This document shows positions 2,923-57,214 of a DNA stretch of 64,000 nt, piece after piece; position 1 is the stretch's first letter; each line of letters opens with the position of its first letter. Under the pieces are notes generated by a model, which saw only the letters and a program-made list of their open reading frames with translations, had not been told where the DNA came from and searched no databases. Source of the stretch: Actinomycetota bacterium (GTDB lineage: Bacteria > Actinomycetota > Aquicultoria > CAJVYJ01 > JAUVQD01); contig JAUXSL010000027.1 in the NCBI GenBank assembly GCA_030679975.1, positions 11,447 to 75,446 on the forward strand, written 5' to 3'. A program made the translations under genes and the position numbers.

Positions 2923-4046
2923 GGCGCCAGCCTGTCAGCGTAAAAGTCAAGGAGTTTTTGCGATTCAATCGCCCAATTATACCGTGTGCGAATAGCGTTA
3001 AGGCCACGCTGCCCCATATTCAGTGCCTCTTGCGGATCTTCCAATAGGTCTCTGATGGCCCGAGATATGGCCTTAGGATCTAAGGAGTCAACCACCAAGC
3101 CACAGCCTGTTCCCATAACGATTTCTCGCCAGAGCGGGAAATTCGAGGCGATTACGGGAAGGCCGACGGACATATATTCAAAAAGCTTGTTTGGTTGTGA
3201 CTCGATGTGGTTTGCTTCAGGGTAAAATAGCACCAGCCCGATTCGACTTTGGCCTAAAAGATTCGCAACCTTCTCGCGGCTTTGATAACCGATAAAATCC
3301 ACTCGCTTGAAATCGGCTGATTTGCGCGTCTCAGTCTCTAGTCCGGGGGGGCAAAAATCGCCGGCCATTGCCAACCTGGCGTTTAGCGCCTCGGGCAGCA
3401 TGTCGATAGCCTGGATGATTTCGTTTACGCATCTAATAATGCTGATTCCACCAACATAAGTAATGAGGTGCGGTCGTTCTAAGTAAGGGCTTGATTTGGC
3501 GGGTTGAAGTTCGCCAAGGATAGGCATATTTTGCACGATCACAGTCTTTTTGTGGGGAAATCTTCGAGCAATTGCCGGGGTTGCGGCCACGACTCCGTCG
3601 AACGCCTTTACGCCCATGGTTTCCATAAGACCGACAGCCTTAGCGACCGGCCGCCTCAGCCAACGCGGTATCCAATATTTGCTCAGAATATCTTTTGGCA
3701 CGTCCTCATGGACATCATAAACGGTTTTAGCTCTTGAAATTATTCTTAGGAAAATAGTTGGAATAACTAGTTCGGGATCGTGAATGTGGTATATATCGGC
3801 ACGTTGGGCCAGAGCCAGCCTTATGGGCCGCCAGAGATTCCAAAATCGATCGATTCGACTCTTGGGTTCCGGGAGGGCTTTTATTTTGACGCCGCCGATG
3901 GTTTGATTTCGATCGTGGGGGGCGATTAAGGTCACGTCATAGCCGGATCGAGCCAATTCGGCGGCTTCTTTGTGAAAGATGCGAACGTCAAAAGCAGGGT
4001 GAACAGAGGTTATGTGAACTATTTTTGGCATAGCTGCGGCTAACAT
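2919..4046 (-). CDS. Family 4 glycosyltransferase
   Basis: GT-B fold, with a C-terminal EX7E-like region (GLPVIASNFPLWREIV). Overlaps neighbours by 4 nt in operon style. Confidence 0.8.
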   Translation of the reverse strand: MLAAAMPKIVHITSVHPAFDVRIFHKEAAELARSGYDVTLIAPHDRNQTIGGVKIKALPEPKSRIDRFWNLWRPIRLALAQRADIYHIHDPELVIPTIFLRIISRAKTVYDVHEDVPKDILSKYWIPRWLRRPVAKAVGLMETMGVKAFDGVVAATPAIARRFPHKKTVIVQNMPILGELQPAKSSPYLERPHLITYVGGISIIRCVNEIIQAIDMLPEALNARLAMAGDFCPPGLETETRKSADFKRVDFIGYQSREKVANLLGQSRIGLVLFYPEANHIESQPNKLFEYMSVGLPVIASNFPLWREIVMGTGCGLVVDSLDPKAISRAIRDLLEDPQEALNMGQRGLNAIRTRYNWAIESQKLLDFYADRLAP

Positions 4047-6004
4047 GATAGACGAATGTTATGTTTCGCGCCTATAGCGCCTGGAATCGCCTGATCGATA
4101 AACTGTCGAAACCAGAGTTCGGTTGTGATGAGGCGCCATATTTCCCAGCTAAGATCCAGTTGGCCGCCGGCATGTTTTTTCAAGCTTTGTTCAAGAACCC
4201 GATGATCGAATATGCGGCGCTTTCTGCACTCGCTTGAGAGCAGTATTTCTTTGGCTTGACGACACTCGTCTTCACGCAACCATTTATTAAAAGGCGTCGG
4301 GTAACCTTTTTTATCGGAACGATTAACTATCTGTTCCGGAAGAATGCCGGTCAGCGACCGTCTCAAAATAGACTTGGTTGTGGCGCGATCGATCTTTTGG
4401 GTATAGGGCAGTCCCAGGCAAAATTCAACCAACCGGTAGTCGAGAAATGGGGTCCGTGCTTCAATGGAAAACGCCATGCTGTTCCTGTCTTCATACCTTA
4501 AGAGGGCGGGTATGCTGCTAACGGTTAAATCATCATAGAGCATCGTATCCAGTAAGCTATCCAATTTTCGCCGCCTCTTTGGCCGACTTCCGTTGGCTTT
4601 CGCCTGGTCTGCAAACTCAGGGTGTAAAGTGCCATAGCGGCATTGAGCTGTTCCGCTTAGCGCTATTGATAGATTAGCCAAACCCGGCAAAGGCGAACTC
4701 ATCGAGTATCTCAATAGTTGTTTAAGGAACAGCTTGGTCAGCCGCTGTAATTGGAATTGTCCGGTTAGGCCGCGAATTCCGCGCTTGCCCTCAAAGAACA
4801 AGCTTAAAAACTTACTATCTCTTGTTTTGGTCCAACTAGACAGCAAAGAAAATAAATAATGATCGAAATAGCTGAAGTAGCCGCCAAGCAGCTCGTCGCC
4901 CCCCTGGCCGTCTAAGAGCACCTTAACTTTGCCGTGGGCCTCTTGCATGACAAGCCATTGAGAATAAAGCCCCGGGGCGGCGCTGGGTTCGTTTTGAAAA
5001 CAAACGATCTTAGATAGTACGTCAAAAAGGTCATCGGCTCGTGGGTAAACCGGAAAAGGCTGTGTGTTAAATCGGCCGTTCATTATATTTACGTATGAAC
5101 TTTCATCACAGTCAGGGTCGGCATAAAGCGCGGAAAATGTTTTGATGGGAAGATGGACTTCTTGACTCATCAAAGCGACGATGGAAGATGAGTCAAGGCC
5201 ACCGCTTAAACAAGTGCCTATTGGGACGTCACTGCGCAACCTTAGCCGAACGGCGTCTTTTAGTAATTCCCGGAATGTTTCTTCAGGTGCGGAATAATCA
5301 TAGGTTTGATTGACGCTCTCGCGATTGTAATCCCAATGCTTCCAGGTTTTATACTCGCCCCGCTTATTGACGGTCATTGAATGGGCCGGCGCTAAAGATT
5401 TTATCTTGGCGAAAAATGTCTCATCGTTGTAATTAGGTACGCCGGTTGTAAGAAAACGGTATAAATAAGGCTCATTGGTTGATCGCAGTTCTGGAAACCG
5501 GGCCAGGATAGGCTTGATTTCCGACGAAAAACAGATCACTTCTTTATTAAGATAATAGTGGAGCGGTTTTACGCCAAAGCGGTCTCGGGACAAGAAAAGG
5601 CGTTGTTTGGTTTCGTCCCAGACGGCAAAGGCCCACATACCGTTAAAGCGCTGCACGCAGTCGGTGCCGTATTCTTCGTAAGCGTGGATGATTATTTCGG
5701 AATCCGCATGGGACTTGAACTTGTGACCCTTTGCTTCAAGTTCGGGGATAAGTTCTAAATAGTTATAGATTTCGCCGTTAAAAGTCAGCCAAATGGTCCC
5801 GTTTTCATTGCTCATCGGTTGATACGCAGCCGAAGAGAGATCAATGATACTTAACCGTCGGTGCCCAAGGCCAATATTGTTTTTGACAAAAAAACCCTCG
5901 TCATCAGGTCCCCGGTGTTCCATTAAATCGCACATTGCTCGCAGCTCGTTAATGTTTACGGGACGGCCGGCCTCGAACCACAGTAAACCGGCTATTCCAC
6001 ACAT
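4040..6004 (-). CDS. asnB: Asparagine synthase (glutamine-hydrolysing)-like amidotransferase, WbpS-like
   Basis: MCGIAGLL N-terminal nucleophile start, a glutaminase domain, and the SGGLDSS PP-loop motif. Located inside the glycan locus. Confidence 0.85.
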   Translation of the reverse strand: MCGIAGLLWFEAGRPVNINELRAMCDLMEHRGPDDEGFFVKNNIGLGHRRLSIIDLSSAAYQPMSNENGTIWLTFNGEIYNYLELIPELEAKGHKFKSHADSEIIIHAYEEYGTDCVQRFNGMWAFAVWDETKQRLFLSRDRFGVKPLHYYLNKEVICFSSEIKPILARFPELRSTNEPYLYRFLTTGVPNYNDETFFAKIKSLAPAHSMTVNKRGEYKTWKHWDYNRESVNQTYDYSAPEETFRELLKDAVRLRLRSDVPIGTCLSGGLDSSSIVALMSQEVHLPIKTFSALYADPDCDESSYVNIMNGRFNTQPFPVYPRADDLFDVLSKIVCFQNEPSAAPGLYSQWLVMQEAHGKVKVLLDGQGGDELLGGYFSYFDHYLFSLLSSWTKTRDSKFLSLFFEGKRGIRGLTGQFQLQRLTKLFLKQLLRYSMSSPLPGLANLSIALSGTAQCRYGTLHPEFADQAKANGSRPKRRRKLDSLLDTMLYDDLTVSSIPALLRYEDRNSMAFSIEARTPFLDYRLVEFCLGLPYTQKIDRATTKSILRRSLTGILPEQIVNRSDKKGYPTPFNKWLREDECRQAKEILLSSECRKRRIFDHRVLEQSLKKHAGGQLDLSWEIWRLITTELWFRQFIDQAIPGAIGAKHNIRLSC

Positions 6005-7248: not shown

Positions 7249-7335
7249 GACATCGCTGTTTATTGTACACGTCTACTATAAAATAACCAAACCGCGAATC
7301 GATCGATCGTCTCACTGGAAATGCTCCCCGACGTT

Positions 7336-7399
7336 GGGGTCAAATCTTTACTCTTGACTTTGCCTAACCAACCAAAGTCAAGAGTAAAGATTTGACCCC
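7336..7399. promoter_or_regulatory. Perfect 26-bp inverted repeat with a 12-nt spacer in a divergent promoter region
   Basis: GGGGTCAAATCTTTACTCTTGACTTT (7336-7361) is the exact reverse complement of 7374-7399. It lies between the divergent starts at 7248 and 7553. Confidence 0.4.
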
Positions 7400-7552
7400 A
7401 TTACAGGAACAAAAAGGTTTACTTGGTTCGCGGCATGTGCGTTAATTGGAATGGTCGTCAGAGGAGCGCCGGCTATCGCTTAGCGGTTAAGGCATCGGTA
7501 ATATTGGCGACGGGGAGGTCTTGGGATAGCGCGGAAAGAAAAACTGGCTATT

Positions 7553-9530: not shown

Positions 9531-10458
9531 CGTAGCTAAACGTATGTCCGATAAAGCGGAGCGGCCAAAGAAGATCATGGCGGGCTCCTCTTAACATGAT
9601 GGCGACAGCCTCGACCGGATGTTTTCTTCGCAAGCTATGACCGGCAAAATCCATAGAGATCTTTGTGTGCCATTTTCGGCAGGCATTCATCACTTCCAGC
9701 GATAGGTTTTGATCGCCAAGGAATCTTTCAGCTAAAGTCAACTGTTCGGCGGCGGCCTCCTTGCGCATGATATAATCTGTCCCGCTCAAGGTAAGCGAGC
9801 CGGGATGGAGCCGGTAATGATAAGTTACTTGCCCTAATGAAGTGTGTCTTATACCCCCGGCAATCAGCCGCAAAAAGAAATCTATATCGGCCGCCAAGCG
9901 ATAGCGCAAATCAAATTGGCCGAATCGCGAAAAGACGCGTCGACGAAAAAAGTGGGCGTTTATCGCCGGCGAGCTTAAAGTGCCGGGTTGAGACAGAAAA
10001 TTTTCATCTTTAAAAAAATCATAGCGAGCGACAACAGTCCGTGCGCCGGGCACGCTTTCTTCAAAAAGGTCGGCCATTCCCAGAACCGCGTCGATCTCGG
10101 GGTTGTCCGTAAATTGCTTGACCGCTTTGTCAAAAACATCTGGCTCGTAAAGGTCGTCGCTGTTCAGGATGCCGATGATCTCACCCTTAGCTCGGTCTAT
10201 GCCTTTGTTAAAACCGTCATAGACTCCTCCATCCGGTTCGCTCGAGACGCTTAATTGCGGGTAACAGCGCAGAACATCAAGGGTCCCGTCTGTCGACCCC
10301 CCATCGATAATAATATGTTCGATCTTGGGATATCCCTGGCGCAGAACACTCTCAATGGCCGAACCAACTAATTCAGCCCGGTTTAAACAAGGCGTAATAA
10401 TTGAGATAAGCGGTGCGTCGGTCATGAGCCGAATATCTTTACGCGCATTACGAAGCAC
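9502..10458 (-). CDS. Family 2 glycosyltransferase
   Basis: The LISIITPCLNRAELVGSAIESVLRQ...IIIDGGSTDGT segment matches GT2. The likely true start is the ATG at 10425 (MTDAPLIS). Confidence 0.8.
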   Translation of the reverse strand: MLRNARKDIRLMTDAPLISIITPCLNRAELVGSAIESVLRQGYPKIEHIIIDGGSTDGTLDVLRCYPQLSVSSEPDGGVYDGFNKGIDRAKGEIIGILNSDDLYEPDVFDKAVKQFTDNPEIDAVLGMADLFEESVPGARTVVARYDFFKDENFLSQPGTLSSPAINAHFFRRRVFSRFGQFDLRYRLAADIDFFLRLIAGGIRHTSLGQVTYHYRLHPGSLTLSGTDYIMRKEAAAEQLTLAERFLGDQNLSLEVMNACRKWHTKISMDFAGHSLRRKHPVEAVAIMLRGARHDLLWPLRFIGHTFSYVTDKETDGR

Positions 10459-11698
10459 CCAGGGCTTGCTTGTACAACATTAAATAAGCCTCCGCCATCA
10501 AACCAAGGTCAAAGCGGCTCAAGGCACTTAAACGAGCAGCGGTTGCCATTTTTTCTTGGGTTTGCCGGTGGTCAAGAACAGAGCGCAGAGCCCGGGAAAA
10601 TTCTTGGGCATTGCCTTGGCCGGCCAATAAACCTGTTTTTCCGTCATCTATCAGCTCGGGAATTCCCCCGACTGCCGAGGCGACTATCGGCAAGCCACAT
10701 GCGAGCGCTTCCAAAACAACTAAGGGACAATTATCGGCGATACTAGTATAAGCCAATACATCAGCGGCTCGATAGTAATCGGCTGTTTCCCGGGCGTTGG
10801 TTGAATGTGGCCGAAAGACGATGTTAGAGTCGGACGGGATTGGGCTGGGTGGTTTTTCCTGTCCGACCACAAGAAGCAGGGGTTGGTCGTTGTGCCGGCC
10901 CATTTTGTCTCTTAACAAACTAAATGATTTCAATAATGTCGACGGGTCCTTCCAAGGACTATCGAGGCCATTGTTGGCAATAAATAAGATAATTTTAGCG
11001 TTGGCGCCAAGCCCAAGACGTTGTCTGGCTTCATTGGGATTGCCGGGTGAAAAAATATCCGTGTCAACGCCGTTATAAATAACTTGTTTAGGCGCGTTGG
11101 CTAAGAAACTTTTATCAACCCTGTCGGCAAGCCATCTTGAAGGCGTCGCTATGTATGGATTAGAGTCACTGACAACACGGCGCTTGTATCGCCAATTAAA
11201 CCGGGTGCCGTCCCGTCTCACATGGGGATAGATAGACAGGTCCGGACACCTGCCACAACCGGTCAACCAGCGTTCGCAATTAAAAGGATGGGCGCAGTGC
11301 CCGGTTAAAAGCCAATGATCATGAAGGGTTAAGATTATTGGTAAGCGCTTAGAAAGCTTGCGAAAGACTGAAAGGTTGATATAGGCACTGTGCAGATTGT
11401 GGCCGTGGATTATGTCAAAGTTGTCGACTACCAGTTTTGGCAACTTACGGCTTTTAAGATGAGCAAGGCTTTGCCAACCCGTCAATGCTTCAAGAGCACG
11501 GAGTCCAAACCGGATTGATTTTGAATGAGTGTCGTCATCGACAGCGAATACGTCGGGATCATCGGAGAGCTTTTTGCCGACCACCAGCAGAGACTTATGG
11601 CCCATCGTTCTGTAGGCATTATGAAGCGACCAGGCGATATTTTCAGCTCCGCCGCCTATATCGATTGTGCTTATTTGAACGATTCTTAGAGGTCTCAT
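10448..11698 (-). CDS. Family 4 glycosyltransferase
   Basis: GT4 fold with a C-terminal LEALACGLPIVASAVGGIPELI segment. Confidence 0.8.
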   Translation of the reverse strand: MRPLRIVQISTIDIGGGAENIAWSLHNAYRTMGHKSLLVVGKKLSDDPDVFAVDDDTHSKSIRFGLRALEALTGWQSLAHLKSRKLPKLVVDNFDIIHGHNLHSAYINLSVFRKLSKRLPIILTLHDHWLLTGHCAHPFNCERWLTGCGRCPDLSIYPHVRRDGTRFNWRYKRRVVSDSNPYIATPSRWLADRVDKSFLANAPKQVIYNGVDTDIFSPGNPNEARQRLGLGANAKIILFIANNGLDSPWKDPSTLLKSFSLLRDKMGRHNDQPLLLVVGQEKPPSPIPSDSNIVFRPHSTNARETADYYRAADVLAYTSIADNCPLVVLEALACGLPIVASAVGGIPELIDDGKTGLLAGQGNAQEFSRALRSVLDHRQTQEKMATAARLSALSRFDLGLMAEAYLMLYKQALGAS

Positions 11699-28186: not shown

Positions 28187-29320
28187 CTATTTTACCGCTA
28201 TCGGCCGCTCTATGGCGACGGCCAGCGTCCTACATACATAGGTGACTTGCTTCTCACTCAATTGCGGGTACATCGGTAGGGATAAAACTTCTGTCGTTGC
28301 TAGTTCGCTTTGTGGATATGCTCCGGCGACCAGCCCTAAGTCAGCGTAGGCGGGTTGCAGATGGATGGGGAGCGGGTAATGAACGGCACTGTCGATGCCG
28401 CGATTCGCCAGTCTCTCCCTGATCGGGTCTCGCTCTTTGACGCGAATTGTATACTGGTGCCAGACATGTGTTCGGTTAGCGCCGGTTGCCGGTCGTTTGA
28501 CGCCCGGCAGTTCCGACAACAATGTATCATATAGGCCCGCACGCGAGCGCCGGGCCGCCGTCCAATTTTCGAGGCGCTTAAGTTTGGTTCTGACTACGGC
28601 GGCCTGCAGTTCGTCCAAGCGGCTGTTATATCCGATTTCTTCATGGTAATACTTCCGGCTGCTGCCGTGAGCTCTGAGCCGGCGGATTCGGCCGGCCGTT
28701 TCTTCGTCGTCGGTGACGATCATCCCACCGTCGCCGGCGCCGCCCAGATTTTTGCTGGGGAAGAAGCTTAGGCAGCCAATATTGCCGATCGATCCGACCC
28801 GTTTGTCCTTGTATTCGGCGCCGATAGCTTGGGCGCAATCTTCGACTACAGCGAGCTTGTATTTTCCGGCCAAGGTCATGATCTCAGCCATATCGGCCGG
28901 TTGTCCGTATAAGTGGACGGGCAAGATCGCGCGGGTGCGCGGGGTGATTTTAGCTTCGATCTGCCCGACATCCAAATTGTATGTCGCCGGATCGATATCG
29001 ACGAAGACAGGCACGGCGCCGCAATAAGATATAGCTTCGACGGTAGCGATAAAAGTAAACGGCGTAGTGATGACTTCGTCGCCGGGTCCAACACCTAAAG
29101 CACGCAAAGCCAGGTGCAGGGCGTCTGTTCCCGATGCGACCCCGACCGCGAAGCGGGCGCCGCAAAAGGCGGCGATCTCATCTTCCAGAGCGGCTACATT
29201 GGGGCCAAGGATAAACCTGCCGTCGGCCAGGGTTTGGTTAACGGCTGCCGTCAGTTCGTCTTTTATCTCTAAATACTGGGCCTTAAGATCAACGACGGGT
29301 ATCATCAATCGCTTAACCAC
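28187..29320 (-). CDS. DegT/DnrJ/EryC1-family PLP-dependent sugar aminotransferase (WbpE-like)
   Basis: N-terminal VDLKAQYLEIKDEL. A conserved lysine region (SFFPSKNLGGAGDGG). 377 aa. Confidence 0.85.
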   Translation of the reverse strand: MVKRLMIPVVDLKAQYLEIKDELTAAVNQTLADGRFILGPNVAALEDEIAAFCGARFAVGVASGTDALHLALRALGVGPGDEVITTPFTFIATVEAISYCGAVPVFVDIDPATYNLDVGQIEAKITPRTRAILPVHLYGQPADMAEIMTLAGKYKLAVVEDCAQAIGAEYKDKRVGSIGNIGCLSFFPSKNLGGAGDGGMIVTDDEETAGRIRRLRAHGSSRKYYHEEIGYNSRLDELQAAVVRTKLKRLENWTAARRSRAGLYDTLLSELPGVKRPATGANRTHVWHQYTIRVKERDPIRERLANRGIDSAVHYPLPIHLQPAYADLGLVAGAYPQSELATTEVLSLPMYPQLSEKQVTYVCRTLAVAIERPIAVK

Positions 29321-29797
29321 TCGTCCTGCGGCACATCGCGGATTATGCGGGCCGGGATACCCATGACCAGTTTGGCGTCCGGGACATCCTTAGTCACTAC
29401 CGAACCGGCAGCGACAAAAGCTTCGCGGCCGATAGTGATGCCCGGCAAAAGGAGCGAGGCGCCGCCGATGCGGGCGCCGCAAAAGGCGGCGATCTCATCT
29501 TCAAGAGCGGCTACATTGGGGCCAAGGATAAACCTTCCGTCGGCCAGAACTTGGTTAACGACTGCCGTCAGTTCGTCTTTTATTTCTAAATACTGGGCCT
29601 TAAGATCAACAACAGGTAGCATTAGCTGCTTAACCACTCGTCCTCCGGCACATCGCGGATTATACGGGCCGGGATACCCATGACCAGTTTGCCGTCGGGA
29701 ACATCCTTAGTTACTACCGAGCCGGCGGCGACAAAAGCTTCGCGACCGATAGTGATGCCCGGCAAAAGGAGCGAGGCGCCGCCGATGCGGGCGCCGC
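29153..29797. repeat. Tandem duplication of two 317-bp units, about 95% identical, bounded by 11-bp GCGGGCGCCGC microhomologies
   Basis: The GCGGGCGCCGC motif occurs at 29153-29163, 29470-29480 and 29787-29797. Each unit is the degT 5' end, the intergenic spacer, and the acetyltransferase 3' end. Confidence 0.85.
29305..29637 (-). pseudogene. Chimeric in-frame ORF created by the duplication: DegT N-terminus fused to acetyltransferase C-terminus
   Basis: Residues 1-56 are near-identical to the DegT N-terminus (MVKQLMLPVVDLKAQYLEIKDELTA...FCGAR). Residues 57-110 are near-identical to the acetyltransferase C-terminus (IGGASLLLPGITIGREAFVAAGSVV...). The junction is GAR, encoded by the microhomology. 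Confidence 0.5.
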
Positions 29798-53379: not shown

Positions 53380-54371
53380 GTAGCACAGGAGTCATCGGGG
53401 CCGGCAGCTGGGGCACAGCGATCTCTAATCTGCTTGCCAGGGCCGGTCATGAAGTGGTTTTGTGGGGGCGCGACCCGGTTTTGGTCGATGCTATTAATTC
53501 GACGCGCCATAATTCGCGTTACCTGAAAGAGGTCGAGCTGTCACCTAATCTTTTGGCCTCTTCGGACATCCTGGCCGCGGTAACCGGTAGAGAGGTGGTG
53601 GTCATGGCTGTTCCATCCCAGGCCATGCGGACCATCGCGACTTCGATCTCAGGTCACCTGGACAACCGGCAGATAATCGTCAGTCTTACCAAGGGGCTGG
53701 AAACCGGGACGCTGATGCGGATGAGCCAAGTCATCACAGAGGTGCTGCCGGGGCCGGCGGTGGCCGCGCTTTCAGGTCCGAACCACGCCGAAGAAGTCAG
53801 TCTGAATATCCCCTGCGCCACGGTGATCGCGGTTGAAAATCCGGCTATCGGGGCCAAGCTTCAAGAGCTGTTCATGACCCCGACCTTCCGGGTCTACACG
53901 AATAAAGACCTGCTTGGCGTTGAGATGGCGGCGGCGACCAAGAATGTCATCGCCATCGCCGTCGGTATTTCCGACGGACTCGGCTATGGCGACAACGCCA
54001 AGGCGGCCTTGATGACGCGCGGCTTAGCCGAGATGACGCGCCTGGGCGTGGCGATGGGCGCTAAAGCGATGACCTACGCCGGCCTGGCCGGCATCGGCGA
54101 TCTGATAGCTACCTGCACCAGCCGGCACAGCCGCAACCGGGCGGTAGGCGAGCGGTTGGCTAGAGGGCAGGCGGTCGGTGAAGCCCAGGCGGAGCTGGGG
54201 ATGGTGGCTGAAGGGGTAAGGACCGTCGAGGCCGTCTGCGCCTTAGCGCAAACCCATGATCTGGACATGCCGATTAGCCGCGCTGTTTATGATGTGATCT
54301 ACCTCGGCAAAGACCCCAAAAATTGCGTCGAGGAATTGATGACCCGGGGCCCGGCTGAAGAAGAGCTGTAA
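53376..54371 (+). CDS. gpsA: NAD(P)H-dependent glycerol-3-phosphate dehydrogenase
   Basis: GAGSWGTAIS N-terminus and LSGPNHAEEV motif. The start overlaps the plsY stop as ATGA. Confidence 0.9.
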   Translation: MSSTGVIGAGSWGTAISNLLARAGHEVVLWGRDPVLVDAINSTRHNSRYLKEVELSPNLLASSDILAAVTGREVVVMAVPSQAMRTIATSISGHLDNRQIIVSLTKGLETGTLMRMSQVITEVLPGPAVAALSGPNHAEEVSLNIPCATVIAVENPAIGAKLQELFMTPTFRVYTNKDLLGVEMAAATKNVIAIAVGISDGLGYGDNAKAALMTRGLAEMTRLGVAMGAKAMTYAGLAGIGDLIATCTSRHSRNRAVGERLARGQAVGEAQAELGMVAEGVRTVEAVCALAQTHDLDMPISRAVYDVIYLGKDPKNCVEELMTRGPAEEEL

Positions 54372-54494
54372 GTCGGGCTTGCCGCCGCTCCTGCGTTCGG
54401 CTCCGGCTCATGCGCCACCCCACAAGACAAAGTCCGTCTTGCGGGGACCCCGGGTGGCTCACGAGTCGCTAAGAAAAGCTTGCCCTCGGCATTC
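54372..54494. repeat. Partial copy of the right half of the MITE-like element, carrying a 40-bp insertion
   Basis: GTCGGGCTTGCCGCCGCTCCT.CGTTCGG.TCCGGCTCATG ... GCTAAGAAAAGCTTGCCCTCGGCATTC matches 55372-55450. It includes a hairpin CCCCACAAGAC/GTCTTGCGGGG. Confidence 0.55.
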
Positions 54495-54496
54495 TA

Positions 54497-54525
54497 TTGA
54501 CAACTCTACATCTCGGCAATAATAT
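54497..54525 (+). promoter_or_regulatory. Near-consensus sigma70-type promoter for the RelE/ParE module
   Basis: TTGACA (54497-54502), a 17-nt spacer, and TAATAT (54520-54525), about 25 nt upstream of the antitoxin start region. Confidence 0.4.
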
Positions 54526-54548
54526 TGGACATATAGACATACAGGCGT

Positions 54549-54803
54549 ATGGAGGTGTATGTGTCCAAGCGGATGACCGTGGTTTTTGACGACGATGAGT
54601 TGTATACGACGCTGAAGGTCGAGTCGGCGCGACAGCACCGGCCCGCAAAAGATATAGTGGCGGATGCCCTGCGCCAGTGGTTTGAGGCTAGAGAAGATGA
54701 AGCGCTGCGGCTGGAAATTAGAGAGGCGCGCGCGGAGTATAAGAAACACGGCGGCAAGGAAGCTCGTCGTTTCTTTGAGGACCTAAAAGCCGGCAAAGCA
54801 TAA
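54549..54803 (+). CDS. Type II antitoxin (ribbon-helix-helix-like), cognate to the downstream RelE/ParE toxin
   Basis: An 84-aa acidic protein (TVVFDDDELYTTLKVE...) ending 1 nt before the toxin ATG. The GTG at 54561, preceded by GGAGG, is a likely alternative start. Confidence 0.65.
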   Translation: MEVYVSKRMTVVFDDDELYTTLKVESARQHRPAKDIVADALRQWFEAREDEALRLEIREARAEYKKHGGKEARRFFEDLKAGKA

Positions 54804-54804
54804 G

Positions 54805-55074
54805 ATGGCTTATCGGATTGAACTGTCACCCGCGGCCCAGCGGGATATCAAGCGTTTCCCATCCCAGATTGTGCCCCTAGTCGAAGCAGCGGTCCTCTCT
54901 TTGGAAAACGATGCTTACCCGCCCGGCGTCCGGAAAGTGATCGGCGAGAAGTCAGTCTGGCGCGTGCGGGTGAGGTCTTACCGGATAATATACGAAATCT
55001 ACCAAGACGAGAGTTTAATAGTCATTCTTAAAGTAGACAAGCGAGGAGAAAGCACCTACAAGCGACCTAAATGA
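54805..55074 (+). CDS. RelE/ParE-family type II toxin (mRNA interferase)
   Basis: MAYRIELSPAAQRDIKRF...PPGVRKV.G...WRVRVRSYRIIYEI.DESLIVILKVDKRGE matches the RelE/ParE signature. Confidence 0.85.
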   Translation: MAYRIELSPAAQRDIKRFPSQIVPLVEAAVLSLENDAYPPGVRKVIGEKSVWRVRVRSYRIIYEIYQDESLIVILKVDKRGESTYKRPK

Positions 55075-55241: not shown

Positions 55242-55485
55242 CCCATTCAAGAGGAAGCATCCAAAACTCTGTGGTTTTGCCTCCTGGGCCGAGGGCAAGC
55301 TTTTCTTAGCTCCAGTTCGCGACTATGGCCTCCACCTCACTCCGGAGGGTGAAAGCCCTCCATAAAAGCGGGTCGGGCTTGCCGCCGCTCCTCCGTTCGG
55401 TTCCGGCTCATGTGGCTCACAGTCGCACTAAAAGCTTGCCCTCGGCATTCCACCACAGAGTTTTGGATGCTTCCCATTCAAGAGC
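55242..55485. mobile_element. MITE-like non-autonomous element, about 221 bp, with 22-bp terminal inverted repeats and 9-12 bp flanking direct repeats
   Basis: The inverted repeats are GGAAGCATCCAAAACTCTGTGG (55253-55274) and CCACAGAGTTTTGGATGCTTCC (55454-55475). The flanking direct repeats are CCCATTCAAGAG at 55242-55253 and 55474-55485. The interior has about 50-bp imperfect long inverted arms and no ORF. Confidence 0.5.
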
Positions 55486-55546
55486 ATAATTGTCTAAAAC
55501 GAGATAAAATATAGAAGAAAGATAAAAAACACTGTTAGCTTTAAAA

Positions 55547-56056
55547 ATGACTAATCAACAGACGAGCAGCAAAAAAGCATATTATCAAGATCATCAGTTC
55601 GTAATTCTGCAATGGGTTTTTGGAATTGCAATCTTTTTGCTATGGATAAAGCGAGCGGTCTTCGGTGTGCCTTGGCAAGTAAACCAGTTCAGTCTTTTTC
55701 ATCGGGTAATTGGAAATGACGCAGGTGAATTTATGGCATCAACGCTTCTCGCCTTCTTTTGCGTCGCTTTTGTTTTATGGGGTGTTAATAAAAATGCATG
55801 GCGTGAAGGCGCAAATCCAGAAACCGATCTTAATTTTTGGTTTAGATTCATGCAGGTCATGTTTGTTGTTGTAATATTTGCTGCGGGTGCGCAAGCCATC
55901 AGTGCGCTACGCTTTAACGAGCCTATTGTTGGCATGGCGTCTCTGTCCGTATTTAGGATTGCTATTGGAATATATGGATTCTTTCTCGCGCAACAACTCA
56001 TTAAGACGGTTCGAAATAATGGCGTCGACGAATTGATGATAAAAAGCCGAAGCTAA
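55547..56056 (+). CDS. Small four-transmembrane-helix membrane protein of unknown function
   Basis: 169 aa with four hydrophobic helices. GC is lower than the flanking DNA. No family recognised. Confidence 0.5.
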   Translation: MTNQQTSSKKAYYQDHQFVILQWVFGIAIFLLWIKRAVFGVPWQVNQFSLFHRVIGNDAGEFMASTLLAFFCVAFVLWGVNKNAWREGANPETDLNFWFRFMQVMFVVVIFAAGAQAISALRFNEPIVGMASLSVFRIAIGIYGFFLAQQLIKTVRNNGVDELMIKSRS

Positions 56057-56068
56057 CAAGGCGCTCCA

Positions 56069-56112
56069 GCGGATTTTTTAAACGGCCAAAATCATGCCGT
56101 TTAAAAAACCGC
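56069..56112. terminator. AT-rich 17-bp hairpin just after the membrane-protein stop; possible bidirectional terminator
   Basis: GCGGATTTTTTAAACGGC ... GCCGTTTAAAAAACCGC with a 9-nt loop and one bulge. Confidence 0.3.
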
Positions 56113-56122
56113 TGAGCTTGGG

Positions 56123-56289
56123 CGTTCCCCGGGCGCTGCGCGCCCGGGGAACGGACCCGCGAGCTGGAATCGGTCGCTGTTCTCCGGCCTCGCTGACTCG
56201 CGCCGGATAACAGCGATCTGGAGCCGATGTCGGCATAATAGCCGAAAAAGCCGGCATTATGCCGCCGCGGCTCAGCTCGCGGGTCCGTT
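56123..56289. ncRNA. About 170-nt block of nested perfect palindromes; candidate structured RNA or REP-like element
   Basis: A 14-bp stem at 56123-36/56140-53. A 17-bp long-range stem at 56150-66/56273-89, enclosing a 14-bp stem (56175-88/56202-15) and a 9-bp stem (56231-39/56256-64). Confidence 0.3.
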
Positions 56290-56329
56290 AGGCGTTAAAT
56301 TAAAGGGGATCAAAAGAATGTCAGAAAAA

Positions 56330-56358
56330 TTGCCATAATGCACACATTGTGCTATATT
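56330..56358 (+). promoter_or_regulatory. Candidate promoter with an overlapping palindromic operator upstream of brnT
   Basis: TTGCCA (56330-35), 17 nt, then TATATT (56353-58). The spacer contains the palindrome GCACA-CAT-TGTGC (56340-52). Confidence 0.3.
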
Positions 56359-56365
56359 TGATAAA

Positions 56366-56644
56366 GTGAAGCACATAAACTGGAACACGGAAAAAAGCCT
56401 AGGACTCAAGAAACTAAGAGGCGTCTGTTTTGAAGACGTTGTTTATTATGTCGAGAAGGGCGACCTGCTAGATGACTATGAACATCCGAATCAGGAAAGA
56501 TATATGGGACAAAGAATAATGGTTATCGGAATAAACAATTACGCATATCTTGTTCCTTATATTGAGAATGAAGATGAAATATTTTTAAAGACTATAATTC
56601 CAAGCAGGAAAGCGACAGAGATTTATCTTGGGGGAAGAAAATGA
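56366..56644 (+). CDS. brnT: BrnT-family ribonuclease toxin (DUF497)
   Basis: INWNTEKSLGLKKLRGVCFED...RIMVIGI...IIPSRKAT pattern. GTG start. The stop overlaps the brnA start as ATGA. Confidence 0.75.
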   Translation: MKHINWNTEKSLGLKKLRGVCFEDVVYYVEKGDLLDDYEHPNQERYMGQRIMVIGINNYAYLVPYIENEDEIFLKTIIPSRKATEIYLGGRK

Positions 56645-56919
56645 AAACCAAACTAACCAAAGAAGAACAAGAAATACTAGATAGTTTTGAAAGAGATGAG
56701 TGGGTTCCCGTGAAGAACCAAGCAAAAAGAAAAGCGGAGCTAATGACCTACGCAAGAAATACTCTGAAAAAAGACAAACGATTGAATATAAGGATTTCCG
56801 AAAGAGATCTGACTGAATTGCAAAGAAAAGCGGTGTCGGAAGGTCTGCCCTACCAGACATATGTCGCCAGCATTATTCATAAATTTGTAAACGGGAAACT
56901 CATTGACGTAAAAAGCTGA
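56641..56919 (+). CDS. brnA: BrnA antitoxin (CopG/RHH-like)
   Basis: EQEILDSFERDEWVPVKN...KRLNIRISERDLTELQRKAVSEGLPYQTYVASIIHKFVNG is the classic BrnA pattern. Confidence 0.8.
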   Translation: MKTKLTKEEQEILDSFERDEWVPVKNQAKRKAELMTYARNTLKKDKRLNIRISERDLTELQRKAVSEGLPYQTYVASIIHKFVNGKLIDVKS

Positions 56920-56947
56920 GTTGCTTGTGACGTTTGAGAGATAAAAA

Positions 56948-57214
56948 ATGAAATATACAGAATACTTCTTGTACACGAGAAATAAGCCCGGAAGAGCCGG
57001 AATAAAAGAGGCCTGGATTCAGTTCGCAATCGACAAACCGGTGCGTACTGAAATACAATCAGATGGCAGGATATGAAAATGGGCCAAGGTTGCCGAGCAA
57101 GAAAAGTATTTGCGAGTGGTTTTATTGCCCGACGGTGAGACAGTCCATAACGCCAAAAAGACCGCGCATTTTCCAGACCTCGCATATCAACAAATTGATA
57201 AAGAAACCGCATAA
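56948..57214 (+). pseudogene. DUF4258-like small protein gene interrupted by an in-frame TGA (or translated by opal read-through)
   Basis: ATG with GAGAG SD. 42 codons (MKYTEYFLYTRNKPGRAGIKEAWIQFAIDKPVRTEIQSDGRI), then TGA at 57074-57076, then 45 more in-frame codons (KWAKVAEQEKYLRVVLLPDGETVHNAKK...). The second half carries a YLRVVLL.DGET.HNA-type motif. Confidence 0.45.

Follow-up and report, generated by a model that had tools for sequence, protein, structure and literature searches.

A probable gene-less integron cassette beside a canonical attC site in an integrase-less cluster of an Actinomycetota genome

The locus

The DNA analysed here is a stretch of 64,000 nt (the window) from contig JAUXSL010000027.1 of an Actinomycetota metagenome-assembled genome (MAG; GCA_030679975.1). 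It contains a small islet between housekeeping genes, in which a unit of 163 nt without any open reading frame (ORF), named X in this report, is probably an atypical gene-less integron cassette. Pfam matches of the window ORFs place gpsA on one side of the islet and a zinc-ribbon gene and an ATP-binding cassette (ABC) transporter on the other; the upstream flank consists of cmk, plsC, ispH, der, plsY and gpsA, and on the downstream flank the zinc-ribbon gene and the ABC transporter are joined by phoU. Inside the islet are a ParE-type toxin-antitoxin pair, an ORF for a membrane protein of 169 amino acids, the brnT gene and its brnA-like partner, and a short ORF interrupted by an in-frame stop. 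The G+C content is 43% between about 55000 and 57200 and about 57% in the surrounding DNA. X forms most of a block of nested palindromes between the stop codon of the membrane ORF and brnT, where three consecutive units can be delimited:

55535-56124, + strand: cassette 1, the 169-amino-acid membrane ORF (55547-56056) and its attC site
56125-56287: unit X, 163 nt, ORF-less, with G|TTCCCC at its left boundary and G|TTAGGC at its right one
56288-56920, + strand: body of the brnT-brnA cassette, with the 5' end TTAGGC, brnT (56366-56644) and the brnA-like gene (56641-56919)

Inverted repeats and folding of the block

A preliminary description of this DNA had listed four inverted repeats in the block, and all four are present in the sequence:

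56123-56136 / 56140-56153: inverted repeat 1, 14 bp, perfect, loop of 3 nt
56150-56166 / 56273-56289: inverted repeat 2, 17 bp, perfect, arms 106 nt apart
56174-56188 / 56202-56216: inverted repeat 3, 15 bp with one mismatch
56231-56239 / 56256-56264: inverted repeat 4, 9 bp, perfect, the core of an imperfect hairpin of 21 pairs (56221-56273)

Only the third repeat, previously given as 14 bp, needed its length corrected, and the 17-bp stem does enclose two local hairpins as had been stated. A fifth hairpin that had been overlooked lies immediately to the left of the block (56063-56117; 22 pairs with single-base bulges). The RNA folding that the same description had proposed reveals structure far beyond chance: the region 56055-56300 folds at -153 kcal/mol, with z-scores of -11.8 on the + strand and -10.0 on the - strand, and none of 200 shuffled sequences folds as well. 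Folded as DNA, the - strand of this region has a z-score of -12.6. The nearly equal stability of the two strands indicates a palindrome at the DNA level rather than an RNA.

A canonical attC site upstream of X

The fifth hairpin is the centre of a canonical integron recombination site, which ends cassette 1 and has the following parts:

56051-56130, + strand: attC site of cassette 1 (hairpin A)
56051-56057: R'' box AGCTAAC, containing the stop codon of the membrane ORF
following R'': spacer AAGGC, then L'' box GCTC[C]AGCGG with extrahelical bases C56067 and A56073
56074-56108: variable terminal structure
56109-56117: L' box CCGCTGAGC
56124-56130: R' box GTTCCCC, preceded by the spacer TTGGGC

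Hairpin A is AT-rich, and its two spacers (AAGGC and TTGGGC) are unpaired. Two covariance models, R1 from 48 sites and R2 from 125 sites in 48 loci, both drawn from one attC super-family, score the site at 57.2 and 55.7 bits (E ~1e-13), and it is their sole match in the window. R1 finds 193 attC sites in 100 loci, including the type of site seen at locus L024 (below), which was absent from its training set. The arms of the site are identical to those of attC sites in loci L087, L092, L094 and L106. A pattern made from the arms, AACAAGNCNCTCCAGCGG N10-40 CCGCTGA, for which about one chance match is expected, had hits in at least 120 metagenome loci as well as in 5 viral contigs. At two loci with such arrays (L050 and L077) an integron integrase adjoins the array in divergent orientation (TIGR02249, 453 and 441 bits; cut-off 265). 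Because of the model scores, the recurrence of the family and the integrases beside related arrays, the hairpin at 56051-56130 is, on its sequence, a bona fide integron attC site.

At its 5' end, cassette 1 is bounded by cactG|TTAGCT (G at 55534), 10 nt before the ATG, and G plus TTAGCT is the exact complement of the cassette's own inverse core AGCTAAC. Its membrane ORF matched no Pfam family. Among 5.8 billion proteins the predicted product matches only itself, from an Actinomycetota MAG, and since it has no other homologue, no orthologous junction is available for comparison. An exact-protein look-up has no record of it and finds GpsA and BrnA only on contigs of about 1 kb from a single run, SRR13727519.

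Unit X fills one cassette slot

The left end of X is the crossover point of the upstream attC site (G56124|T56125), and its right end (G56287|T56288) is the start of the brnTA cassette, so that X fills exactly one cassette slot. It thus has G|TT boundaries in common with neighbouring cassettes that were defined independently of it. Its R''/R' boxes, GGGGAAC (56146-56152) and GTTAGGC (56287-56293), contain the AAC...GTT triplets, as do AGCTAAC and GTTCCCC in the upstream site. The G+C content of X is 68%, compared with 41% and 37% in the neighbouring cassettes, which fits an independent acquisition. No ORF fits into its 163 nt: by a criterion of at least 70 amino acids there is none, and the sole overlapping ORF encodes 59 amino acids on the - strand and crosses the left boundary. 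No promoter-like site was found inside X.

As cassettes circularise at G|TT, the first six bases of a cassette, preceded by G, are complementary to the R'' box of the same cassette. This rule holds for X, where G plus TTCCCC and GGGGAAC (56146-56152) are complementary at 7 of 7 positions, and also for all the cassettes checked at another locus, L053 (TTAGAT/ATCTAAC, TTGGAC/GTCCAAC and TTCGCA/TGCGAAC). The first palindrome of the block is therefore the 5' end of X paired with its own R'' box, because only 15 nt lie between the two, where ordinary cassettes have a gene. Read in this way, the block has four hairpins:

56123-56153: hairpin B, 14 bp, perfect, loop TGC; the 5' end TTCCCC of X pairs with its R'' box GGGGAAC (56146-56152), extended by GGGCGC/GCGCCC
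56150-56289: stem C, 17 bp, perfect; R-box triplet AAC/GTT, then spacer GGACC/GGTCC (fully paired), then L box CGCGAGCTG/CAGCTCGCG without a bulge
56172-56218: hairpin D, enclosed by stem C, 16 pairs and one internal mismatch
56221-56273: hairpin E, also enclosed by stem C, 21 pairs including a perfect core of 9 bp (56231-56239 / 56256-56264); a T run follows the hairpin on the - strand

The 17-bp stem is thus an R triplet, a spacer and an L box, and the two hairpins that it encloses are a branched variable terminal structure, which is known for long sites such as the Vibrio cholerae repeat (VCR) (PMC2727003). A heuristic scan for attC sites finds stem C on both strands, because no bulge sets its polarity; the scan yields about 10 false matches per 64 kb at an L-box stem threshold of 7 bp and serves as a pointer only.

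The 170 nt from 56125 onwards have a fold z-score of -11.0. In a computed fold of X as a circle, 80% of the bases pair and the junction becomes a perfect helix of 27 bp. The minimum-energy fold of the whole region pairs CTAAC of the upstream attC site with GTTAG at the far end of X, as expected if X was inserted into a former junction between that attC site and brnTA.

The brnTA cassette downstream of X

The brnTA module is 84% identical in DNA sequence to positions 3923-4555 of locus L024, and the homology starts at window position 56286, at G|TTAGGC, which is the right end of the 17-bp stem. In L024 two attC sites (one at 3859-3930) enclose the module as a cassette. These sites are 72-nt repeats of the form RYYYAAC-AAAYC-GCTC[C]ACC...GGTGAGC-TCGGAC-GTTAGGY and are classical, with an extrahelical base and an unpaired spacer. 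Environmental metagenome and MAG records contain 3,672 homologues of BrnT, of which the best 120 show 74-95% identity. We also considered whether X, read on the - strand, could be the attC site of an inverted brnTA cassette, for which R'' would equal the consensus GCCTAAC. This was rejected, as the upstream attC site and L024 fix the direction of the array as +.

The module has its own sigma-70-like promoter, TTGCCA-17-TATATT (56330-56358). A palindrome at 56340-56352, GCACACATTGTGC, overlaps the spacer and the -10 region of the promoter and is kept as GCACACATTGTG or GCACACAATGTG in the modules of other samples (L023, L024, L026, L036 and L037). Since it is kept in these homologous modules, it is likely to be the operator of the antitoxin, as judged by sequence comparison. 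The surroundings of the module vary. In L036 a direct repeat of some 125 nt lies on both sides of it (…ccagggacacaatacttatctcttaggcttaggtcccggc…; ~9700-10000 and 10560-10800) instead of attC sites, and in L037 it lies among riboflavin genes. Because of these different contexts, brnTA is not always an integron cassette, and the module appears to travel by more than one vehicle.

Beyond brnA, an ORF of about 88 codons (56948-57214) is interrupted by an in-frame TGA at 57074-57076 (…DGRI*KWAKVAEQEKYLRVVLLPDGETVHNA…). Its stop falls in GCATAAC, which resembles an attC inverse core, and no matching L boxes follow; the ORF may be a decayed fourth cassette. A pairing of GCATAAC (57207) with TTTATGC (57268) was considered as an attC site after brnA, and hence the right end of the cluster, and was not accepted, the L boxes being unpaired.

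Units of the same architecture in other arrays

Loci retrieved with the attC pattern contain gene-less units of the same architecture as X, located directly after the crossover point of an attC site. They share with X a short hairpin, made of the 5' end of the unit and its R'' box, which is followed at once by a long perfect stem enclosing one or two hairpins, and they contain no ORF. At locus L053 a 165-nt unit (TTCGCACCG-CTT-CGGTGCGAAC...CAACTCGCCG) is present in three copies, each bounded by G|TT, which alternate with three unrelated ORF cassettes. Two of these copies are identical, and the third, partial at a contig end, is 96% identical over 125 nt. A family of about 110-126 nt, Y, occurs in L093, L081, L130 and L026, and a further family, Z, in L081, L093 and L130. 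L026 is a contig from Hainich that was retrieved three times (L028 and L096 are duplicate records) and that also carries the brnTA module. L081 holds a partial homologue of an integron integrase.

Among 116 segments of 170 nt downstream of attC sites, the median fold z-score is -0.2, and only 5 segments fall below -5, all of them units of the L053, Y or Z type, against -11.0 for X. In the Y family all differences in the two main stems are compensatory, amounting to four double changes and one inserted pair.

Two further features of the Y copies in L081 were recorded. Two - strand copies, with starts at 4510 and 7448, have the loop of the first hairpin exactly inverted relative to each other (TCACTTCGCTCG versus GAGCGAAGCGAG) and are otherwise collinear, while a third copy contains an internal duplication of about 50 nt.

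Interpretation

The position of X, its boundaries, its agreement with the complementarity rule and the recurrence of its class are direct observations. From them we conclude, with a probability of about 0.68, that X is an atypical gene-less integron cassette beside a canonical attC site, made up almost entirely of its own recombination-site-like hairpin, in an integrase-less cluster. Of the proposals in the preliminary description, that of a "REP/BIME-like recombination or IS-target element" survives in part: an element of recombination is indicated by the place of X between two crossover points and by its attC-like R and L boxes, and the REP/BIME part (repetitive extragenic palindromes and bacterial interspersed mosaic elements) is lost, as X has no other copy. 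The mobile end of the islet, which had also been suggested, is not what X represents, since it is an internal unit between two cassettes.

By analogy with ordinary cassettes, X would have been mobilised by an integron integrase, entering the array as a small circle by attC x attC recombination at G|TT. This enzyme would have acted in trans, being encoded elsewhere or since lost. Because cassette 1 begins at G|TT without a preceding attC site, the cluster was possibly seeded at a secondary genomic site, and the whole of it may have entered the chromosome at such an "attG" site (5'-GWT-3'); integrase-mediated insertion at genomic 5'-GWT-3' sites is documented (10.1101/2022.09.11.507474). With no gene in X, control of its orientation would be unneeded and selection for one orientation absent, so that extrahelical bases and an unpaired spacer could be dispensable. 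Selection on the hairpin, or repair of one arm from the other, might keep the arms perfectly complementary.

Several findings weigh against this interpretation. Extrahelical bases and an unpaired spacer have been described as common to all known attC sites, where they direct bottom-strand choice as well as recombination efficiency (PMC2727003; PMC5027507). X has no extrahelical bases, its 17-bp stem being perfect, and no unpaired central spacer, GGACC/GGTCC being fully paired. In VCR sites, pairing of the spacer cut recombination 27-fold, and when the extrahelical bases were removed as well both strands were drastically affected (PMC2727003). Neither R1 nor R2 detects X with filters off and E-values up to 10. 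The cluster thus has one model-detectable attC site in addition to X; it would be a cluster of attC sites that has no integron integrase (CALIN) only if X were counted, and is not formally one. Nothing attC-like was found before cassette 1, and no attC site follows brnTA within the window. No integron integrase or pseudogene of one was found in the window, either by Pfam searches of 39 ORFs or by tblastn with two integron integrases (best E = 0.72). Among the related units, Y ends at A|TT and Z starts at G|AT, which are non-canonical ends; G|AT lies within the 5'-GWT-3' consensus at which the integrase cleaves genomic sites (10.1101/2022.09.11.507474). Of X, the independent short assembly available as Logan contig L002 contains no more than the last 23 nt, with a break at window position 56265.

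X also has no second copy in any collection searched, and its mobility is inferred from position and analogy. The search for additional copies by BLAST that the preliminary description had recommended gave none, either in the window compared with itself or in plasmids and phages by blastn. A two-arm pattern found no true copy in 185,579 species genomes, and the 21-mer of the left arm was not found in metagenome contigs of the JGI. The few matches that did arise were discarded as chance or unrelated. The 11 matches of a 17-mer arm in viral contigs are single-arm and all lie in coding sequence (ERTRELE motif), GC-rich palindromes resembling hairpin B in 8 viral contigs are unrelated, and the one genome match of the two-arm pattern, in a Steroidobacteraceae MAG, lies in coding sequence and has no internal similarity.

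A broader and tentative idea, less likely than not, is that X, the L053 unit, Y and Z belong to a class of integron cassettes not described so far, namely "attC-only" mini-circles of about 110-170 nt that are minimal and non-coding. These would parasitise integron integrases and spread to many attC junctions within and between arrays; with no gene to orient, they would do without extrahelical bases and an unpaired spacer, and hairpin-templated repair would keep their arms perfectly complementary. According to published descriptions, every attC site has three unpaired features, namely extrahelical bases, an unpaired spacer and a variable end. X and the units that share its architecture have neither of the first two and carry no gene, and in the open-access literature we found no description of body-less, fully paired units. 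If the idea is true, free-standing recombination sites could be the raw material for the unsolved acquisition of attC sites by new cassettes. If such units recombine, control of polarity would be dispensable where there is nothing to express, and integrons would have their own parasites akin to miniature inverted-repeat transposable elements (MITEs). As the units are missed by standard attC models, automated cassette boundaries and counts would be wrong wherever they occur.

Alternative explanations

X could instead be a palindromic non-autonomous element, MITE-like or a passenger of a hairpin-recognising enzyme of the HUH or IS110 type, that targets attC cores and is moved by an enzyme other than an integron integrase. 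Elements with such a preference exist, IS1111-attC being one. Others are the group IIC-attC introns (PMC3001079). The failure of the attC models to recognise X, the ends of Y and Z that depart from G|TT, and the inverted loop in one Y copy, which hints at hairpin-based replication or repair, are all in keeping with an element of this kind. We nevertheless consider it unlikely. X and the L053 unit start and end exactly at G|TT and obey the rule relating R'' to the 5' end, and even G|AT falls inside the 5'-GWT-3' consensus of the integrase (10.1101/2022.09.11.507474). X also has neither terminal inverted repeats nor a target-site duplication: its ends (TTCCCCGGG... and ...GGGTCCG) do not form an inverted repeat, its flanks share nothing but CGTT, which is the crossover motif, and no transposase was found nearby.

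About as improbable, in our judgement, is that X is a dead remnant, namely an attC site left behind when a gene cassette lost its coding part by deletion, with arms later perfected by quasi-palindrome correction, and now functionless and immobile. Its single copy and its lack of the features needed for efficient, polar recombination (PMC2727003; PMC5027507) would follow naturally, and the cluster does look decayed, brnTA having no attC site and the next ORF (56948-57214) an in-frame TGA. Random deletion, however, would not be expected to leave between the 5' end and R'' of X 15 nt that are themselves palindromic. Very similar architectures, moreover, occur in multiple identical copies in other arrays, and the compensatory evolution of related units argues for an active or selected class.

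A transcriptional role seems very unlikely, whether as a terminator or insulator that separates the membrane gene from brnTA or as a structured small RNA (the latter put forward in the preliminary description). The structure is very stable, hairpin E with its T run reads as a terminator on the - strand (the one intrinsic terminator predicted, at 56267-56252), and attC sites and gene-less cassettes can influence transcription (PMC8876359). On the + strand, in contrast, no stem is followed by a T run and no intrinsic terminator was found between 56060 and 56300, and X has no promoter-like site from which an RNA could start. A small RNA is further disfavoured by the equally good folding of both strands and by the outcome of the Rfam search, which gave no match in the window at the gathering score (the best local hits, with E-values up to 10, reach a chance-level 21-22 bits against thresholds of 38-77). 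X is without a homologue and hence without demonstrable conservation or covariation, and a transcriptional role would leave the coincidence of its ends with crossover points unexplained.

Least credible of all is an assembly artefact, a chimeric or fold-back join in a contig of MAG origin such as the break of L002 inside X at 56265 might suggest, given that a simple fold-back would not have this nested, asymmetric structure with its distinct loops and internal hairpins, that L002 reproduces the right arm and the junction exactly, and that analogous units occur in independent assemblies of other samples.

Other features of the islet and the window

At the gpsA side of the islet, the ParE-type toxin gene and its upstream partner (54549-55074) appear to be GC-rich like the host, in contrast to the adjoining AT-rich cassettes (59% G+C in the bin 54001-55000). 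The partner ORF, of 84 amino acids, matched no Pfam family. Between this pair and cassette 1 is a MITE-like insertion of 220 bp (55254-55473, within 55243-55484) with perfect 22-bp terminal inverted repeats GAAGCATCCAAAACTCTGTGGT, an 11-bp direct repeat CCATTCAAGAG at both flanks and a fold energy of -114 kcal/mol. Because it is GC-rich inside an AT-rich islet, the insertion suggests a resident element that jumped into acquired DNA. A related GC-rich repeat (54372-54494) starts one base past the stop codon of gpsA and reappears within the MITE-like element at 55372-55450, as two stretches of 41 nt that are 95% and 90% identical. The copy beside gpsA has no terminal inverted repeats and has an extra hairpin, and an independent Logan contig, L001, terminates within it.

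Two repeats lie elsewhere in the window. Overlapping copies of about 332 bp at 29149-29480 and 29466-29797, 92.8% identical, form a tandem duplication beside polysaccharide-synthesis genes, and a near-palindrome of 66 nt (7335-7400; 88% self-complementary) is located between two divergent ORFs of a glycosyltransferase cluster.

Comparison with known systems

REP/BIME elements and MITEs are, like X, short, GC-rich, intergenic and strongly palindromic. REP/BIME elements occur as many dispersed copies per genome, typically with a transposase of the REP-associated tyrosine transposase (RAYT) type, whereas X has no other copy; it also differs from these elements in having no terminal inverted repeats with a target-site duplication and in ending at integrase crossover points. 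A true MITE-like element with both terminal inverted repeats and a target-site duplication lies 650 nt upstream of X (55254-55473) and serves as a contrast.

The upstream site at 56051-56130 is a full canonical member of the integron attC sites, or 59-base elements (Bouvier 2009, PMC2727003; Nivina 2016, PMC5027507; IntegronFinder, PMC4889954). X resembles these sites in its AAC...GTT R''/R' boxes, in the spacing of 7 + 5 + L box, in a long branched terminal structure like that of VCR, in its 3' position within a unit bounded by G|TT, and in an R'' box complementary to the 5' end of the unit. It differs from them in lacking extrahelical bases, in its paired spacer, in an R-box helix that reaches 14 bp in the array and 27 bp in the circular form, and in receiving no score from the two models.

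Gene-less cassettes have been documented in Treponema, Xanthomonas and Vibrionaceae (PMC6557892; PMC8876359; 10.1101/2023.11.21.568050), and X likewise occupies a cassette slot without an ORF, with ORF-bearing and toxin-antitoxin cassettes around it. In those described, a classical attC site follows a non-coding body that often contains a promoter; in X, by comparison, the body is 15 nt long, has no promoter-like site and is followed by a non-classical, perfectly paired site.

At the level of the cluster, the closest parallels are CALINs and insertions at genomic attG sites (PMC4889954; 10.1101/2022.09.11.507474). A CALIN must contain two or more attC sites, and the cluster in the window has one that the models detect. 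Like these systems, it consists of cassettes located between core genes and away from an integrase, and its left boundary, a G|TT without a preceding attC site, fits the 5'-GWT-3' consensus of attG insertion. No complete integron has been reported from Actinobacteria, and few CALINs are known there (PMC4889954; PMC9024848). The locus therefore adds an integrase-less cassette cluster in Actinomycetota, a phylum in which integron components have been reported as extremely rare.

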